Assembly: GCA_003022255.1 (NCBI GenBank)
Contig: PXPA01000011.1
Span: 1-41,337, forward strand
DNA length: 41,337 nucleotides
Reading direction: 5' to 3'
From: Parcubacteria group bacterium SW_6_46_9
GTDB lineage: Bacteria > Patescibacteriota > Minisyncoccia > Phycocordibacterales > SW-6-46-9
The position numbers and the translations under genes are program-made. The notes beneath the pieces were generated by a model. That model ran no database searches. It was not told the DNA's origin and was given only the letters and a program-made list of their open reading frames with translations. This document shows, one piece after another, positions 19,893 through 36,900 of the stretch. Positions within the stretch are counted from its first letter, which is position 1, and each line of letters starts with the position of its first letter.

Positions 19893-20426
19893 TCATTCTG
19901 GTAGGTGTTTGGCTAGTTTATGTACTGATTCTTTGACTGAAAGCTTGCCGACATCTAATTTGATTTCTTTTTCTGATTGTTCATTCATTACATACTCATG
20001 CAGCTCATCAAACTCATTCTTAGGAACACTATATTCTCGCTGTTGATTGCGTCGCCATAAAATTTCGTAGTCAGCGTAGAGAAGAATCGGGTGTGCCTTA
20101 ACGTTATACCGATCAGATAGAGTTAGAATATCACTCATAGAGCCATGTGGACCATCATCATTCCATGCAAATAACCCTTCAGTAACAATTGTATATCTGC
20201 CGTCATCAAGATAATTTTCTAGCACAGATAAATAATTTTTATATGCTAGCCGATGTTCACTCTTTGTAACTTCAGAAATTTCTCTGTCACAAAGATGAAT
20301 ATTCCAACGAAACATATCCAGCTCCAGATATGCAACTTTACCAGGAGTTTTTGGAATAAATTCTTTCGTAATAGTACCCTTACCACTGGCTGGTGCGCCA
20401 CGAAATATAAAAATCTGTTTGCTCAT
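19893..20426 (-). CDS. P-loop kinase (AAA_33 / zeta-toxin-like small kinase)
   Basis: The Walker A is FRGAPASGKGTITKEF. The size (177 aa) and layout are typical of small nucleotide or metabolite kinases. Confidence 0.6.
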   Translation of the reverse strand: MSKQIFIFRGAPASGKGTITKEFIPKTPGKVAYLELDMFRWNIHLCDREISEVTKSEHRLAYKNYLSVLENYLDDGRYTIVTEGLFAWNDDGPHGSMSDILTLSDRYNVKAHPILLYADYEILWRRNQQREYSVPKNEFDELHEYVMNEQSEKEIKLDVGKLSVKESVHKLAKHLPE

Positions 20427-20458
20427 ACTTAATCCAATGGTAGCAAAACCAAAGGGTG

Positions 20459-20880
20459 TGCTCAGGGTGGGAACCTCACGTAGACATAACTTCTTTTGAA
20501 ACCAGAGTGGGATTCCTCTCCAGTCAGCTGCCTGACGGCAGCTGCTTCCGAGCCGGACCTCGCCGTCTTCGCCTTCTCGCTTCGCCCCTCACATGGATTC
20601 GTTACATAACTTTGATGAAAAACTTTACAGCTTGGTACCCATCAATGGTCCATGCGAGGGGCTTCGATCAAAACTCAGACATGGCTGCGGCCTTCGAATC
20701 CCACAAAAACATGCATAAATGCATGTTTACCTAGCTATATTATAAGCAAGTACCGAGCTAAGGTGCTTAACTTGTAAGTGCCTTAGCTCGGTTCCTCGGA
20801 AAAGAGAGGCAGTGAGCGAGAAATCGCGCGAACGTCAGAAGATGAGTCGACGAAAGGGTTTTTCTCTCCGAGCCCTATTG
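20459..20880 (-). repeat. non-coding island downstream of tRNA-Leu, ending in a degenerate copy of the tRNA-Leu 3' end (20459-20475); contains the f-module of the tRNA-linked repeat family and two long hairpins
   Basis: 20459-20475 tgctcagggtgggaacc compares with tRNA-Leu 20881-20894 tgcccagggcggga (12/14). On the minus strand, gattcgaaggccgca, atgtctgagtttt and gacggcgaggtccggctcggaagcag parallel the Arg- and Val-linked copies. Hairpins lie at 20707-20728 (10-bp palindrome plus T-run on the minus strand) and 20752-20792 (12 bp perfect, extendable to 18 bp). Confidence 0.6.
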
Positions 20881-20965
20881 TGCCCAGGGCGGGACTCGAA
20901 CCCGCATGCGCGTAAGCGCGACGGCCCTCAACCGCCCGTGTATACCAAGATTCCACCACCTGGGC
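20881..20965 (-). tRNA. tRNA-Leu (anticodon GAG), class II with a long variable arm
   Basis: The reverse complement is gcccaggtggtggaatcttggtatacacgggcggttgagggccgtcgcgcttacgcgcatgcgggttcgagtcccgccctgggca. The anticodon stem is ggcgg/ccgtc and the loop is ttGAGgg. Confidence 0.9.
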
Positions 20966-20973
20966 ATCGGCAT

Positions 20974-21639
20974 TCATAGCTGCATATCCACTTTAGCTAA
21001 TGCTTCTTTGATTTTCAACCGCTTTCGTGAAAGGTACGTAATATCATTAGAGTGATACATATTTCTTAACAAATTCATAGACTCATCTTTTGCGTATTTA
21101 AGTTTATAAACCTTACTATTTTTCGATTTACAAATATGTCCACGAATATCAATAAATTTGTTTATATTCTCTCGTAGCCAGTCGATATGGTCTTCACTGG
21201 CTGAATTAAATACGGTATAAAACATATAACTAGATTCCCAGCGCTTATCCCAAAAGCTGTAAAAACAACCATCCCCATCAAAAAGACCGCGTAAAAAATC
21301 AAGAAAATACTTATCGGGAATATCGATTGACCCAATTGTTTTGGACTTGGCAGTTGTCAGCCCAATGTCTTCTAAAAAAGAATAAAACAGCACATCACCA
21401 AACTGAACTCTTCCACATCTTCCACCCCTGCCGTTCTCTTTTTCAGATATTTTTACATGCTCTATATCTAAACATCTCACAAAGTTTTCTAGCTGCTCTT
21501 CATCTTGAGAAGTAAAATCGAGATGCCTGCCATTACTTGAAAGACATCCATCGGCTGTAAAAAGCCCGACTGCATATGCAAAATCAGGAGACCAGGTAAT
21601 ATCAACTACTCCTTTGGGTTTTGGGCCAGGTTTTGCCAC
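20974..21639 (-). CDS. free-standing double-motif LAGLIDADG homing endonuclease
   Basis: There are two LAGLIDADG-type motifs, FAYAVGLFTADGCL and FLRGLFDGDGCF, about 100 aa apart. The stop codon is 8 nt upstream of the tRNA-Leu 5' end on the same strand. Confidence 0.85.
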   Translation of the reverse strand: MAKPGPKPKGVVDITWSPDFAYAVGLFTADGCLSSNGRHLDFTSQDEEQLENFVRCLDIEHVKISEKENGRGGRCGRVQFGDVLFYSFLEDIGLTTAKSKTIGSIDIPDKYFLDFLRGLFDGDGCFYSFWDKRWESSYMFYTVFNSASEDHIDWLRENINKFIDIRGHICKSKNSKVYKLKYAKDESMNLLRNMYHSNDITYLSRKRLKIKEALAKVDMQL

Positions 21640-21680
21640 TATCTATATTATACTGCAAGAAAATTCTTACAACCAGAACA

Positions 21681-21740
21681 GGTGTTACGTAACAGATTGA
21701 AAGTTGTTTTATAACAAAAATTTTGCTGTTATGTAACACC
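21681..21740. repeat. 15-bp inverted repeat ggtgttacgtaacag / ctgttatgtaacacc separated by 30 nt, just downstream of rplS
   Basis: Read directly from the sequence, with one G-T mismatch position. It could be a terminator-like or regulatory hairpin. Confidence 0.4.
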
Positions 21741-21747
21741 ATGCGGC

Positions 21748-22332
21748 TTACTCTTTAACCTCGTTGTCTTCATCGCCGGACTCTTCATCAGAATTTTCAT
21801 CTTCACTGTCAGATTTTTCTTGGCTGGAGTCATCTTGTTCTATTTCTGCGCTATCTTCTGGCGAATCGTCGGCAGATTCGTCAACATTATCAGCATCTTC
21901 ATCTTCTTCGGTGTCTTCATTTTCACCACTCTCTTCACCCTCAGTTTTCGTAGAAATATCAACATTAACCATCCGGCGCATCTGCCGGCGAATCTGGCGA
22001 GCTGCCTTATCCCGGATATGATACAGTTTCGAGCGACGCATTTGCGCGCGGCGAACAATATTAATTTCATCAATACGCGGAGAATACAGCGGAAAGATCT
22101 TTTCGACACCAACACCCTCAACCTCAGATCGAACCGTAAAGGTTCCGCCCGGCTCATCACCGTGTTTTCGACCGAGCACAATACCTTCAAACGGCTCAAG
22201 GCGGTACTCCCCGCCACCATCATCGACTTTCTCGACAACCCGAACCGTGTCACCGGTCTGAATATCAATATCCTGTCGCTTGCCGACATCAACCGGCGAA
22301 ATTACGTTTTGTTGATCTTTTGTGGGAGCCAT
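21748..22332 (-). CDS. rplS: 50S ribosomal protein L19 with a ~75-aa acidic C-terminal extension
   Basis: The L19 core includes GDTVRVV...EG(I)VLGRKHG...TFTVR...GVEKIFPLYSPRIDEI.VVRR. The tail is rich in D, E and S (EDEDADNVDESADDSPEDSAEIEQDDSSQEKSDSEDENSDEESGDEDNE). Confidence 0.9.
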   Translation of the reverse strand: MAPTKDQQNVISPVDVGKRQDIDIQTGDTVRVVEKVDDGGGEYRLEPFEGIVLGRKHGDEPGGTFTVRSEVEGVGVEKIFPLYSPRIDEINIVRRAQMRRSKLYHIRDKAARQIRRQMRRMVNVDISTKTEGEESGENEDTEEDEDADNVDESADDSPEDSAEIEQDDSSQEKSDSEDENSDEESGDEDNEVKE

Positions 22333-22379: not shown

Positions 22380-22986
22380 TCAAGAAAATACGGCGTCTTT
22401 TGCCGACTGAAAGTCTGGGGGCAAATCTGTTTCGGCGGCAATGGTTTGACCGTCTGGTGTATTAAAGGTAATTCGGCGCGCATGGAGCGCCTGACGATAT
22501 AATTCACCAAAACACTCTTTGCCGTCTGCATACAAACTGTCACAAACTACCGGATGGTGGATTGATTTCAGATGCACGCGGATCTGGTGGGTGCGTCCCG
22601 TTTTTGGATACGCTTGGCTCATCGATGGTAAATGACGGATTGGTTATTTCGCCGTACACAAGTGTTTGGTACTCTTTTTTAATCGTTCGGTTTTTAAACT
22701 GCTTTTTAATATGCTCGTAGGCTTTTTGGTTTCGTACCACAATCACCACACCGCTCGTTTCTTTATCCAGTCGATGAACAATGCCGGGCCGCGGTATATC
22801 CGGCTTACCCTCCCTTTGGATTGGTTCACCAACTCCATCTGTTTCCGGGTAGTTTTTCTGGATCCACTGAGCCAAATGCGGCCTGCCTGTTCGGCCGTCA
22901 CCATGAACCATCAAGCCGGCCGGCTTGTTTATGACGACCACAAAATCAGTTTCAATCACAACAGACACTTGGTCAAGTAAGCTCAT
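22380..22986 (-). pseudogene. RluA-family pseudouridine synthase, frameshifted and apparently internally deleted
   Basis: ORF 22540-22986 has VVINKPAGLMVH and GIVHRLDKETSGVVIV. ORF 22380-22622 has TGRTHQIRVH in another frame. About 40 aa usually lying between these motifs seem absent. Confidence 0.6.
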
Positions 22987-23948: not shown

Positions 23949-24052
23949 GGGCGGTTAGCTCACCCCAAGAGTACTTCTTCGTCAGTAAACTGACTCAGGG
24001 CGCAGCTGGCAAGTTTGCCAGCTTCGCTAACCACTTTTTAAAATTTAACTAT
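23949..24052 (+). repeat. exact copy of tRNA-Val nt 1-14 (23949-23962), followed by the repeat-family core (b-module, 23961-24006) and a 9-bp hairpin
   Basis: gggcggttagctca is identical to 24053-24066. The core is caccccaagagtacttcttcgtcagtaaactgactcagggcgcagc. The hairpin agctggcaa/ttgccagct lies at 24004-24023. Confidence 0.7.
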
Positions 24053-24125
24053 GGGCGGTTAGCTCAGCTGGTAGAGCGTCTCGTTTACACCGAGAATGTC
24101 GTAGGTTCAAGTCCTACACCGCCCA
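24053..24125 (+). tRNA. tRNA-Val (anticodon TAC)
   Basis: The sequence is gggcggttagctcagctggtagagcgtctcgtttacaccgagaatgtcgtaggttcaagtcctacaccgccca. The anticodon stem is tctcg/cgaga and the loop is ttTACac. Confidence 0.92.
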
Positions 24126-24311
24126 CAACGAACAAAGTGAAAAGTGAGTTGTGGCGGTGAGCAAGCAACTTTCTTTGCTTGCATTCGGGCTTGAAAGCCG
24201 CAACTATATCTGAGTTTGCCAAGCTCTGCTTGGCGGGGCGTAGATAGTGAGGCTCGGCGCGAAGGCAAAACTCGTCAGAGTTTTGACCGAAGAGAAGTCC
24301 TACACCGCCCA
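24126..24311 (+). repeat. hairpin-rich tRNA-Val trailer (e- and f-modules), ending in an exact 20-nt copy of the tRNA-Val 3' end plus flank
   Basis: 24295-24314 aagtcctacaccgcccacaa equals 24109-24128. The trailer start caacgaacaa...gagttgtg parallels the tRNA-Arg trailer caacgagcaa...gagttgtg. atatctgagttt at 24206 is shared with 25594. Confidence 0.7.
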
Positions 24312-24321
24312 CAAATTCAAA

Positions 24322-24348
24322 AACAGCGTCCATTCGGGCGCTGTTTTT
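24322..24348 (+). terminator. rho-independent terminator after the tRNA-Val unit
   Basis: The stem is aacagcg/cgctgtt (7 bp) with a 10-nt loop, followed by TTTTT. Confidence 0.7.
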
Positions 24349-24359
24349 ATATTAGATGT

Positions 24360-24601
24360 TTAGATGTGTAGGACTCGAACATGGAAAGGGGGCGGGAAAA
24401 CTCCAGTTTTCCCGTGTTGGAAAGCAGTCCGCCGCAGGCGGACGTTGAGAACCGTGGGATAAAACAGAACCTTCTTTCTGTTATATCCGATTCTGCTCTT
24501 GGCGGAAATTTCGAATGTCGAATGTAATGAGACAAGAAATAGGAGGCCTCGAAGAGGTTAAAACGCAGGAGCGAAGCGACGAGTGGTGAGGGTCCTACAG
24601 C
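24360..24601 (-). repeat. inverted member of the repeat family, bounded by inverted tgtaggac / gtcctaca ends
   Basis: The left end is tgtgtaggactcgaac, the reverse complement of a T-arm/acceptor-like gttcgagtcctacaca. The right end is gggtcctacagcacaca. 24565-24595 gcaggagcgaagcgacgagtggtgagggtcc matches the type-B core seen at 33455-33493 and 36830-36870. Confidence 0.5.
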
Positions 24602-24696
24602 ACACACAAATTTTGTTTAAACAATCAAAGAAAAAGGCTCTGCCCGAGAGAGCGGACAGAGCCTGTAGTCGTCCCTGAGTGACAGAGACCGAGAGG

Positions 24697-25323
24697 TCAA
24701 AATGTTCGGGCTAACCCGAACTGGAAAAAGAATTCTTCCTGAGTGATCTCGTACTGTGTTCCGACAATCAGCCCGGTTTTGTTGTTGATTGAATGAGTGT
24801 ATTTTACACCCACCTGCTTAATGATGTAATCAACAGGCTTAAAGTCAACCAACGCAGCACTGAGCGTGAACGGACCTGGAGTGTAAAAAGCCACTACACT
24901 CCGAGCAAAAAACTCCGGACTCATTTCAAATCCAGATTCTTGTGTACCGGCTGACCATTCATGCCAGAGCCATACAGTTAAATTGTCGATCGGGTGGAGG
25001 TTAAGCCGAACCCCGCTCCACGGCACACCGGAAAATTGCCCAACGTTACCCGATATTGTCATCCAGCTTGTTACCGGGTATGTGCGGACGAAGTAAGCTC
25101 GCTCAGAATTGCCTTGAAGCGCGAACCAGTTGCCGGGCTGCTCTTTTTGGTACGTCCAGCGCACATCCAGCCCAGACGTGATAACTCCCGTACCGAAAGT
25201 GACTACTCGAGAACTCAATTCAAACCCACCAACCTCCTCCGGAGCTACCTGGGCAATGGTGTTACCAGGAAAGCTGAGGAAAGCGAGTGCGAGAAAGCAG
25301 AACAAAAAGCAACGAGGATTCAT
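24697..25323 (-). CDS. secreted protein with beta-strand periodicity and a C-terminal Phe (outer-membrane beta-barrel-like)
   Basis: Likely start is ATG at 25323. The signal peptide is MNPRCFLFCFLALAFLSFPGNTIAQ. The mature ~185 aa show alternating hydrophobic patterns and end in FFFQFGLARTF. Confidence 0.55.
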   Translation of the reverse strand: MNPRCFLFCFLALAFLSFPGNTIAQVAPEEVGGFELSSRVVTFGTGVITSGLDVRWTYQKEQPGNWFALQGNSERAYFVRTYPVTSWMTISGNVGQFSGVPWSGVRLNLHPIDNLTVWLWHEWSAGTQESGFEMSPEFFARSVVAFYTPGPFTLSAALVDFKPVDYIIKQVGVKYTHSINNKTGLIVGTQYEITQEEFFFQFGLARTF

Positions 25324-25534
25324 TGGAGGGTGCTCAGTTGTGAAGGAAGATAACGAACCCTGAACTATGTAAATATTAATACATATAAGCATAATAGTCA
25401 AACTAAACACGTGTCGCTTTCCGCTGGTTTTACATTACTCTCAACCACTAAAATCGCTCCGATGCAGCACTACATTGGCTAAATCTAGTTAGAATGCTTA
25501 TGCCAAGCGTGCTTTAACCAGATGAGCGTCTCTT

Positions 25535-25694
25535 GGGGGTAGAACTTCACTCTAAGAGTATCTCCTCGTCAGCAAGCTGACTCACAGTACAGCATATCTG
25601 AGTTTCAGCTTTGCTGAAGCCGAGGACGACGGGGTGCAGGCTACGAAATTTCTGCATCGAAAGCATTATTTGCAGTCGAATCCTACACCGCCCA
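25535..25694 (+). repeat. contiguous 160-nt copy of the repeat family (degenerate 5' tRNA-like piece, b-core, f-module), ending in a 15/16 copy of the tRNA-Val 3' end
   Basis: The start is gggggtagaacttca. The core is cactctaagagtatctcctcgtcagcaagctgactcacagtacagc. The middle is atatctgagtttcagctttgctgaa..., and the end is tcgaatcctacaccgccca. Just upstream, gagcgtctc equals tRNA-Val nt 21-29. Confidence 0.65.
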
Positions 25695-25787
25695 CCAATT
25701 AATACTTAAGCATTTTTGTTTGATTATATTAGCGTAATATTACATAATATTTTTGTGTCTGTTCCTTTCATAAGAACTTATTCTGAT

Positions 25788-33080: not shown

Positions 33081-33184
33081 ATATTGTTATTATACTCATT
33101 ACACAAAAATAAAGCAAAATAAAAATAACTGCGGATCTCGGTTTCTACCGAATACACTTTCCGGATAAAGACTCTCTGCAACCA

Positions 33185-33604
33185 ACTACCTAACGGGAAC
33201 TGCTTTCGAGTCGGGCCTCGATACCGTCGCCCTGTCCTTCTACAAGCTCATGACAGACTTGGATATACTGTGCTGTGAGTCAGATTACTAACGAGCAAAT
33301 ACTCTTGGGGTGCACCCTTCGATTCCTGACGAATATCGCAGTAAATACTAGCAGGAATCCCTTACGGTAAATCGGCTAACGCCGATTTCCTCCAGACCGA
33401 GCCTCGATATCCTCGCCTTGTGCTCACCAGGCTCGCACAAACCCGGATATATCTGTGCTGGGAGCGAAGTGACCGAATACTCGTGGGGTGCGGCTTTCGA
33501 TTCCTAACGAACATGCAAAACTGTACTAGTAGGAATCCTCTTCGATTCCTACACGAACGCACCAAACGGTGCGTTCTCGGAGTCACAACTCGCGTTGCTC
33601 GTTG
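33185..33604 (-). repeat. tRNA-Arg trailer (e-module) followed by two tandem copies of the repeat family
   Basis: The cores are 33270-33314 (gtgctgtgagtcagattactaacgagcaaatactcttggggtgca) and 33455-33493 (gtgctgggagcgaagtgaccgaatactcgtggggtgcgg). Two 9-bp hairpins are gaacgcacc/ggtgcgttc and gtaggaatc/gattcctac. The orientation is co-directional with tRNA-Arg. Confidence 0.65.
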
Positions 33605-36476: not shown

Positions 36477-36739
36477 ATCTAATTATCAGTATAACGCATT
36501 ATTAGATAACGTATTATCAGATAGTATTAGCTGCTAAACTCATACTAGCCAAAATATGAAGAGTTGAGGGGGGTGAGGCCGAGATTGAGAAAGTCTCGCC
36601 ACAAGCGGGTTTTTTGCACCGAAACATCGCACGGGCTTAACTGTAAACCATCCCGGGCTAAAGCCTGGAGCTTTCAAATAGTCAAGATATAGCACCTTTC
36701 TTGCGAAATCAATCTATGTTACTGAGCGCCAGGCATGTC

Positions 36740-36900
36740 CGAAACGAACGAGCACCCCTTTTCTGAAGAGGCTCCGCAGCCGACAATGCATGGTCTACGA
36801 TTGTCGGTGAGGACTGAACCAAAATCGACGTGCTGTGAGCGAAGCGAGGGAATACTCTTAGGGGTGCTGGCGATTTTGGTGTACTCTTCAGAAAACGGGG
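36740..36900 (-). repeat. orphan copy of the repeat-family core, not next to a tRNA, enclosed by a 9-bp stem
   Basis: The core is 36830-36870 gtgctgtgagcgaagcgagggaatactcttaggggtgctgg. It is enclosed by ccaaaatcg (36819-36827) and cgattttgg (36871-36879). An outer pair is ctgaagag (36763-36770) with ctcttcag (36884-36891). Confidence 0.55.

Follow-up and report, generated by a model that had tools for sequence, protein, structure and literature searches.

Does a free-standing LAGLIDADG endonuclease gene that ends only a few nucleotides before a tRNA gene drive the mobility of the repeat-like elements found behind that tRNA and others, or do the two merely share a neighbourhood? The question is raised by a contig of 41,337 nucleotides (nt) from the metagenome-assembled genome (MAG) Parcubacteria group bacterium SW_6_46_9 (Paceibacteria), analysed here in full and referred to as the window. 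Here an open reading frame (ORF) of 221 amino acids (aa) lies directly 5' of tRNA-Leu(GAG), and a 405-nt non-coding island follows the tRNA. An earlier interpretation made from the DNA letters alone (the sequence-only reading) had proposed that the tRNA-linked elements owe, or once owed, their mobility to the LAGLIDADG enzyme, which would cleave tRNA genes at sites such as the octamer TCCTACAC, with the elements copied in at repair. Our analysis favours, with reasonable though not high confidence, two independent insertional layers flanking a conserved tRNA-Leu(GAG): an endonuclease gene on its 5' side and short structured units, here termed tRNA-tail elements, on its 3' side, with the endonuclease not moving the elements.

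On the minus strand the gene order is acylphosphatase, RluA-type pseudouridine synthase, rplS, a 108-nt spacer, the LAGLIDADG ORF, 8 nt, tRNA-Leu(GAG), a non-coding stretch to ~20427 and an AAA-type kinase gene, with the features needed below as follows.

21748..22332, minus strand: rplS (ribosomal protein L19; Pfam Ribosomal_L19, 4.8e-26), the conserved upstream neighbour
21640..21747, minus strand: rplS-endonuclease spacer, fast-evolving (55% identity to the close relative L081, against 89–93% for the flanking genes)
20974..21639, minus strand: LAGLIDADG ORF, 221 aa, GTG start (ORF list and Pfam)
20990..21018, minus strand: promoter-like site TTGAAA-17-TAAAGT in the 3' end (last 45 nt) of the ORF, a candidate tRNA promoter (consensus scan)
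20976-20974, minus strand: stop codon TGA of the LAGLIDADG ORF (read directly)
20966..20973, minus strand: 8-nt spacer atgccgat from the stop codon to tRNA +1 (read directly)
20880..20965, minus strand: tRNA-Leu(GAG) (ARAGORN; Rfam tRNA, 43.1 bits, E = 1e-7)
19893-20426, minus strand: AAA-type kinase gene, downstream of the non-coding stretch

The same-strand junction of stop codon (20974) and tRNA 5' end (20965) is thus as first described. The Rfam match to the tRNA was dropped by a default-filter scan and recovered with permissive filters.

That the endonuclease does not move the elements is argued by where each is found and by the footprint that the elements leave. The endonuclease gene is tied to the 5' side of one tRNA, whereas the elements lie 3' of at least 31 isoacceptor types and of transfer-messenger RNA (tmRNA) genes, with no endonuclease gene nearby. 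A scan of one genome per GTDB species returned 401 genomes encoding a relative of the endonuclease, from which 80 loci were inspected, 73 of them evaluable in having >90 nt of sequence after the gene. The sequence-only reading had called for a survey of association with tRNA genes and with the repeat: tRNA-Leu(GAG) lies directly 3' of the gene, on the same strand, in 73/73, but the repeat is found at tRNA-Leu in only ~6–8 of the 73. Locus L323 carries units behind both tRNA-Leu(GAG) and tRNA-Arg, with an rplS-tRNA-Leu spacer that lacks the endonuclease gene. Furthermore, insertion of an element would regenerate the supposed target and leave a 17–20-nt direct repeat, whereas homing disrupts its site and produces no duplication, and a single LAGLIDADG enzyme, recognising DNA through protein contacts, cannot account for 31 sets of antisense arms, each matched to its own tRNA. 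The octamer TCCTACAC, advanced as a candidate cleavage site, is part of the T-stem and acceptor 3' strand of tRNA-Val, and recurs in the window (24112, 24298 and 25681; antisense at 24366 and 33547) because the tRNA-Val 3' end is copied there in sense or antisense.

By its sequence and predicted fold, the 221-aa ORF is a genuine single-chain LAGLIDADG endonuclease. Pfam assigns LAGLIDADG_3 (5.3e-9, residues 20–70) and LAGLIDADG_1 (9e-4, residues 116–198), in agreement with the two motifs noticed earlier (AVGLFTADG and LRGLFDGDG), whose final aspartates, D30 and D123, do not vary among 26 aligned sequences, which also share a conserved basic N-terminal tail, MGKRGPKPKG. The AlphaFold2 (AF2) model (predicted local distance difference test, pLDDT, 92.1; predicted TM-score, pTM, 0.89) adopts the pseudo-dimeric alpha-beta-beta-alpha-beta-beta-alpha fold, with no additional domain, including a helix-turn-helix (HTH), in the modelled 221 aa. 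The best match of this model in the PDB by Foldseek is I-Tsp061I (2dch; E = 3.6e-11, TM 0.70/0.76), which is also returned by a PDB sequence search (E = 1.1e-6), with further structural matches to I-AniI, I-SceI, I-DmoI, inteins, WhiA and the bI3 maturase. Close homologues number more than 1,000, all from Patescibacteria/Paceibacteria MAGs; they are 215–240 aa long and ~55–65% identical, with one at 93%, and an exhaustive search yields 98 clusters (50% identity) at E <= 1e-30, shading into generic LAGLIDADG proteins. The window's own endonuclease is missing from a 5.8-billion-protein collection (best match 93%), in which the neighbouring L19 is present at 100%; the GTG-start ORF was probably left out of the deposited MAG annotation.

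The gene is free-standing and lies in no group I intron, archaeal intron or intein, with no intron family found by Rfam on the window and locus, rplS and a complete tRNA on either side of the ORF and no host-protein extein, so that the sequence-only reading was right to place it outside an intron. Across the homologous loci the gap from stop codon to tRNA is mostly 0–9 nt (range -36 to +52), the ORF entering the tRNA by 15–36 nt in 11 loci, whilst rplS lies upstream in 74/80 and the ORF is intact in all 80 inspected copies. A different picture of its frequency comes from nine loci picked via L19 homologues, independent of the endonuclease. One of these (L324) carries the gene, and the other eight consist of rplS, a 64–229-nt spacer and tRNA-Leu(GAG) without it. 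These empty loci keep the acylphosphatase-RluA-rplS-tRNA-Leu(GAG) synteny, often with tRNA-His next, and their spacers contain an rplS terminator and a sigma-70-like promoter; no remnant of the endonuclease was found in the seven searched (tblastn, E up to 10). In one empty locus, L326, L19 is 76% identical to that of the window.

The history of the gene, measured from pairwise distances only, is discordant with that of its hosts. Mean pairwise identity of the endonuclease is 0.596 versus 0.551 for L19 of the same genomes, with pairwise identities correlated between L19 and RluA (r = 0.70), and far less so between the endonuclease and L19 (r = 0.06) or RluA (r = 0.30). Host pairs with L19 proteins 95% identical and RluA proteins 79–89% identical have endonucleases only 61–66% identical. 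Between the window's gene and its closest relative, in L081 (93% aa identity), 28 synonymous and 15 nonsynonymous codon differences give an estimated ratio of nonsynonymous to synonymous rates (dN/dS) of ~0.17, which indicates purifying selection. Because of the fixed site, the intact empty alleles, the discordant history, the kept active site and this purifying selection, the gene fits the picture of a free-standing LAGLIDADG homing endonuclease gene, one of a new and well-populated lineage that homes to a single site next to a tRNA. The gene occupies what was ancestrally the spacer between rplS and tRNA-Leu(GAG), immediately 5' of the latter, and in a homing cycle its product would cut the empty rplS/tRNA-Leu junction of genomes without the gene, at a site probably including the conserved 5' part of the tRNA-Leu gene, with the gene then copied in during repair (intronless homing). 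The tRNA would meanwhile retain a promoter of its own within the last part of the ORF.

The sequence-only reading expected co-transcription on the ground that ORF and tRNA leave no room for a promoter, a ground that is now doubtful. A sigma-70-like site ends 4–40 nt before the tRNA in 35/74 homologous loci, compared with 0–7/74 in control windows deeper in the ORF, and because of this enrichment at the 3' end of the ORF tRNA-Leu(GAG) probably has its own promoter inside the endonuclease coding sequence. The promoter-like site coincides with a conserved C-terminal peptide, LKIEKAL. Co-transcription of endonuclease and tRNA is possible but not required.

Several points weigh against homing. Cleavage and target site are inferred from sequence, the 1-in-9 frequency comes from a small sample, and a host function could also yield a pattern in which 80/80 copies are intact and conservation equals that of L19. 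The alternative that follows is that the host has domesticated the protein as a factor expressed together with tRNA-Leu(GAG), for example a DNA-binding regulator or an RNA maturase, inherited vertically with repeated loss. Besides the conservation on a par with a ribosomal protein and the lack of a broken copy among the 80, this would accommodate the tight or overlapping junction with the tRNA and the resemblance of the model to WhiA and the bI3 maturase, and the many rRNA insertions of Candidate Phyla Radiation (CPR) genomes could need a maturase (PMC11270868). However, the gene is missing at eight of the nine sampled related loci, with no remnant in the seven searched, its divergence is decoupled from two host markers to the point that very close hosts hold copies 61–66% identical, both catalytic aspartates are invariant, unlike in WhiA or maturases that have lost catalysis, and no HTH domain has been added. 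We therefore regard domestication as unlikely. An early reading of the gene as universally conserved and domesticated was overturned by the L19-anchored sample and the host-marker control.

On the other side of the tRNA, the units found behind tRNA-Leu(GAG) in L008, L060, L066, L071 and L072, and others behind tRNA-Val, tRNA-Arg, tRNA-His and tRNA-Leu(TAA), share one architecture. The tRNA 3' end is followed by a hairpin, often terminator-like, then by a segment antisense to the acceptor 3' strand, a small hairpin, a second antisense segment directed at T-stem and T-loop and ending ..TCGAA, a structured core and, lastly, a direct copy of tRNA positions ~57–73. In the endonuclease-anchored loci and the window, a copy of the tRNA's own 3' end follows 20/165 tRNAs and precedes one, usually at a spacing of 130–210 nt, and antisense matches are found downstream of 40 and upstream of 21 of the same 165. 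At least three core types occur, the best defined of which, type A, reads GAA-AGACGGAG-hairpin-GAGUCGGGGUCG-hairpin-GUGACC. This core appears 17 times in the endonuclease-anchored loci, always 30–310 nt behind a same-strand tRNA, and its strict pattern is found at 120 or more metagenome loci; among the matches listed, 80/122 instances lie behind a same-strand tRNA, usually at 26–90 nt, covering the 31 or more isoacceptor types. Several instances for which ARAGORN called no tRNA lie directly downstream of tmRNA genes or of tRNA genes that contain a group I intron (L235, L245, L273, L298; L231, L243).

Of the distal 3'-end copies, 35/87 are identical at 17/17 positions and the others have decayed. 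Units also occur in tandem, the more distal copies being more decayed, and the presence of elements varies at orthologous tRNAs. A unit may insert at the T-loop/3' end of a tRNA or tmRNA gene, in which case the incoming unit would supply a new tRNA 3' end, a hairpin, an arm antisense to the tRNA's 3' half and a core of structured RNA, whilst the old 3' end would be pushed downstream and decay there. Repeated insertion of this kind would give rise to the displaced, decaying 3'-end copies and to the stacked units.

The island behind tRNA-Leu(GAG) in the window is made up of the following parts.

20729..20879, minus strand: proximal island, with a degenerate hairpin (20836-20869) and a 16-bp hairpin (20753-20791; 12+4 pairs); 94.5% identity to L081, where the first hairpin is intact
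20707..20728, minus strand: palindrome of 10+10 nt round a 2-nt centre, a terminator-like hairpin followed by a U run (fold)
20498..20705, minus strand: tRNA-tail unit with antisense T-arm GTGGGATTCGAA, core and closing helix (hidden Markov model, alignment, minimum free energy fold)
20498..20515, minus strand: first degenerate tRNA-Leu 3'-end copy, gaatcccactctggtttc, which ends the unit (aligns with the copies ending the Val and Arg units)
20457..20474, minus strand: second degenerate tRNA-Leu 3'-end copy, gttcccaccctgagcaca, ~25 nt past the first and holding the 14-mer noticed in the sequence-only reading

From these alignments the 405-nt island appears to be a stack of at least two decayed tRNA-tail units. 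A hidden Markov model (HMM) built from four Val- and Arg-linked units, with the Leu unit left out, matches 20503-20577 (minus strand) at E = 2.1e-9, with a colinear weak match at 20683-20702, and thereby bears out the suggestion that the island holds sequence of the repeat family (its f-module). The minimum free energy (MFE) fold closes the unit with a 9-bp helix of GUGGGAUUC with GGAAUCCCAC (20696-20704 with 20507-20516), and the unit carries a private 90-nt insert at 20580-20669. The degenerate tRNA 3' end recognised earlier at 20459-20472 extends to a 14/16 match between TCCCACCCTGAGCACA (20457-20472) and the tRNA-Leu 3' end, the sole other match in the window at <=3 mismatches on both strands, compared with 0.27 per window in shuffles. 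The palindrome at 20707-20728 stands where a hairpin or terminator precedes the antisense arm in the units of other loci; it had been described as a perfect 22-nt palindrome, and whilst present it is imperfect in having a 2-nt centre. The stem placed near 20752-20792 was confirmed, as was the lack of a credible ORF at 20476-20880, with the only ORFs of at least 40 aa, a 92-aa GTG ORF on the plus strand and a 64-aa ORF overlapping the tRNA, both implausible. The whole island folds at -167.8 kcal/mol (z = -6.4 versus shuffles), and Rfam 15 over 20300-21100, at E up to 10, gives the tRNA match alone. The proximal 190 nt of the L081 island is ~95% identical to that of the window, before divergence inside the core.

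Similar arrangements are seen at other tRNAs of the window. At tRNA-Val(TAC) (23949-25697, plus strand), a 14-nt copy of the 5' end lies ~100 nt upstream beside a repeat-family module (23958-24018, E = 6e-8), with at least three stacked units downstream, their 3'-end copies at 24295, ~24585 and 25678, and the last unit holding a 237-aa ORF (24697..25410, minus strand) without a Pfam or PHROG match. At tRNA-Arg(TCT) (33129-33603, minus strand), three tandem units each carry GGAATCGAA antisense T-arm segments and GATTCCT(A/G)C copies. Weak matches to the repeat-family HMM also lie away from called tRNAs, at 36562-36632 (plus strand, E = 1.3) and 36830-36863 (minus strand, E = 0.0066).

The type-A core behaves as a conserved RNA structure. 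A covariance model recovered 135 copies, with statistics taken on 129 distinct sequences: 96.4% of cells are paired, compensatory changes occur in 18/18 pairs, 459 cells are changed on both sides versus 114 in shuffles, and the covariation score is 0.551 versus 0.156 for shuffles and <= 0.094 for slid controls. That the structure lies on the strand of the tRNA follows from a G.U pair that hardly varies and from frequent GC/GU alternations. In MFE folds, the tRNA 3' half pairs with the antisense arm to form hairpins of 30–45 bp. No credible Rfam match was found at the elements of six related loci, and hammerhead, twister, pistol, hepatitis delta virus (HDV)-like and K-turn motifs did not fit the core by eye, with which Rfam agrees.

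A more far-reaching possibility, though less likely than not, is that the elements form a programmable mobile class for tRNA/tmRNA 3' ends, in which the core and matched arms direct their own insertion, or replacement of the 3' end, by pairing. If targeting is by pairing, it would be RNA-guided or act through a folded single strand, and the element would be a new guided element or ribozyme rather than passive cargo of an integrase. In the predicted folds the long hairpin of tRNA 3' half and antisense arm could mimic the target as a folded single strand. Use of the arm as a primer-binding site was considered and rejected, pairing with mature tRNA as primer being ruled out because the arm pairs with the trailer of the gene and not with CCA (L071).

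A number of observations sit uneasily with the insertional reading of the island. The proximal 150 nt of the island is without an assigned unit type, and the covariance model, R1, matches the Val unit of the window weakly (24182-24308, E = 0.1) and the Leu unit not at all, with the L081 island at E = 0.0039; the window units would thus share the architecture of the elements, with a core of a different type than type A. No recombinase, transposase or reverse transcriptase was found in the elements or consistently beside them (Pfam, PHROGs and neighbour clustering), and the strict core pattern has zero matches in IMG/VR viral contigs. A loose pattern gives 120 matches in IMG/VR among those listed, which we attribute to chance, as they fall mostly in high-GC contigs, none behind a tRNA, with GTGACC next in only three. 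Additionally, in 11/12 cases of a drifted distal copy the antisense arm has stayed a match to the live tRNA, and an arm kept matched in this way hints at ongoing function rather than mere decay.

Such a function could be regulatory, with the island and its relatives acting as cis-acting 3' trailers of tRNA maturation, in which the arm sequesters the tRNA 3' half, the sense copy competes for it and the core senses. The 11/12 arms that remain complementary to the live tRNA are what this would predict, and the 30–45-bp MFE hairpins, the conserved G.U pairs that put the structure on the tRNA strand and a proximal island more conserved (94.5%) than the neighbouring genes all accord with it. A trailer serving its own tRNA is harder to reconcile with a presence that varies at orthologous tRNAs, with tandem stacks of progressively decayed copies, with one core shared by 31 isoacceptors and tmRNA, and with a terminator-like hairpin between tRNA and arm in many units; we consider it improbable.

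Equally improbable, in our judgement, is that the island is a scar, the attachment-site (att) arms left when larger islands or prophages that carried an integrase, having entered at the tRNA-Leu 3' end, were later deleted. The tRNA 3' end and T-loop are a classic integrase target, many contigs break just after tRNA-Leu, and two loci have a large serine recombinase gene that runs across a tRNA 3' end, that of tRNA-Leu(GAG) in L325 and that of tRNA-His in L322. However, random deletion remnants would show neither a recurring, discrete size of 130–210 nt nor a covarying core, the strict core is without match in IMG/VR, and no link between a recombinase element and the core was seen within the partial sequence examined. 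The Leu island itself contains no integrase or recombinase gene, and the neighbouring ORFs have no recombinase match (Pfam, PHROGs).

The serine recombinase genes, at 3111-4619 in L325 and 3188-4836 in L322, lie on the opposite strand to the tRNA, their C-termini encoded by tRNA antisense sequence, and belong to other integrative elements at the same tRNA ends; neither a distal tRNA copy nor a core was seen within the partial element sequence examined. Because these genes overlap the same tRNA 3' ends, mobilisation of the tRNA-tail elements in trans by T-loop-acting integrases is plausible. Neither Pfam nor PHROGs gave a match for the ORFs of 237, 175, 348 and 123 aa that lie within or next to the larger Val and Arg units. 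The protein that recurs most often within 2.5–3 kb of type-A elements, in either orientation, is a small nuclease of YraN/UPF0102 type (L202-L321). Among the matches listed (n=120), recurrences near type-A loci are weak: YraN/UPF0102 at 13, an HTH+LAGLIDADG-like ORF at six and L19 at five. As to the endonuclease being the engine, the strict tRNA linkage of its family, the occurrence of both features in Paceibacteria and this different HTH+LAGLIDADG-like ORF near 6/120 type-A elements speak for it, but against the distribution, footprint and arm sets set out above they leave it very improbable.

The two layers resemble several known systems without matching any. T-even phages carry free-standing homing endonuclease genes that encode the Seg and Mob proteins, with SegB located in the tRNA gene cluster of T4. 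Like these, the gene described here lies outside introns and inteins, beside a tRNA gene and sporadically at a fixed intergenic site, with spread inferred to proceed via cutting of the gene-less allele. In contrast, Seg and Mob are GIY-YIG or HNH enzymes of phages, whereas here a single-chain LAGLIDADG enzyme is encoded on a CPR chromosome at one site across hundreds of species. Fold and motifs are shared with I-Tsp061I (2dch), and the CPR host range with the LAGLIDADG enzymes of rRNA introns or insertions, but no rRNA gene, intron or intein encloses the window's gene, and the account of CPR rRNA insertions makes no mention of tRNA (PMC11270868).

The elements, for their part, recall the islands and prophages that target tRNA genes in using the region from T-loop to 3' end, in restoring the tRNA and displacing the old 3' end as a direct repeat, in their use of tmRNA and in their tandem arrays. 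They differ in a unit size of 130–210 nt, in lacking an integrase, in carrying an inverted copy of the target and a conserved core, and in that one core family serves at least 31 different tRNAs. Williams (2002) reportedly distinguished sublocation classes of integrase-mediated islands and prophages at tRNA/tmRNA 3' ends. Folded single strands serve as recombination sites in integron attC and in the attP of the CTX phage, and the hairpin of the tRNA-tail elements likewise rebuilds a duplex copy of the target. Homing to tRNA genes guided by nucleic acid occurs with the short CRISPR RNAs (crRNAs) of type V-K CRISPR-associated transposons (CAST), and IS110 elements use bridge RNAs; similar to such guides, target-matched segments flank a conserved scaffold in the tRNA-tail elements. 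The order of antisense arm, core and sense 3' part is also that of engineered trans-splicing ribozymes that replace a 3' end. Unlike the guided systems and ribozymes, however, the tRNA-tail elements come without an identified protein, and no catalytic motif of a known ribozyme was recognised in them. Their guide lengths and geometry do not fit IS110 or the arrays known as TIGR (tandem interspaced guide RNA). TIGR-Tas arrays, considered for their occurrence in CPR, were rejected, being built of 36-nt units with 9-nt spacers (PMC12045711) beside tas genes. Neither the tRNA-tail elements nor the tRNA-Leu-adjacent endonuclease lineage was found described in the literature searched, and the elements appear to be previously undescribed.

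Elsewhere in the window, the RluA-type gene is split into overlapping ORFs (22540..22986 and 22380..22622; 22380-22986, minus strand) where relatives have a single gene of 237–252 aa, the result of a frameshift, of pseudogenisation or of an error in assembly. L19 bears a C-terminal tail of ~75 aa rich in Asp, Glu and Ser (21748-21975, minus strand), which shorter homologues (141–152 aa) lack. Direct repeats at 277-619 and 2617-2939 (58 nt at 90% identity and 41 nt at 78%), ~2.1–2.6 kb apart and both containing a GC-rich hairpin, point to duplication of small genes or of terminators.

If the reading of the endonuclease is correct, it would represent a homing endonuclease of the LAGLIDADG family that is both cellular and free-standing, its one homing site lying at a tRNA gene and being deeply shared, and the hundreds of natural variants at the same site would offer both a natural experiment in the dynamics of the homing cycle in CPR bacteria and a panel of related meganucleases. 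The tRNA-tail elements explain the frequent assembly breaks just after tRNA genes in such genomes, in which partial tRNA 3' ends would be insertion scars and not gene fragments. Furthermore, with arms that match whichever tRNA precedes them, these elements raise the possibility of guide-based targeting of essential genes without damage.

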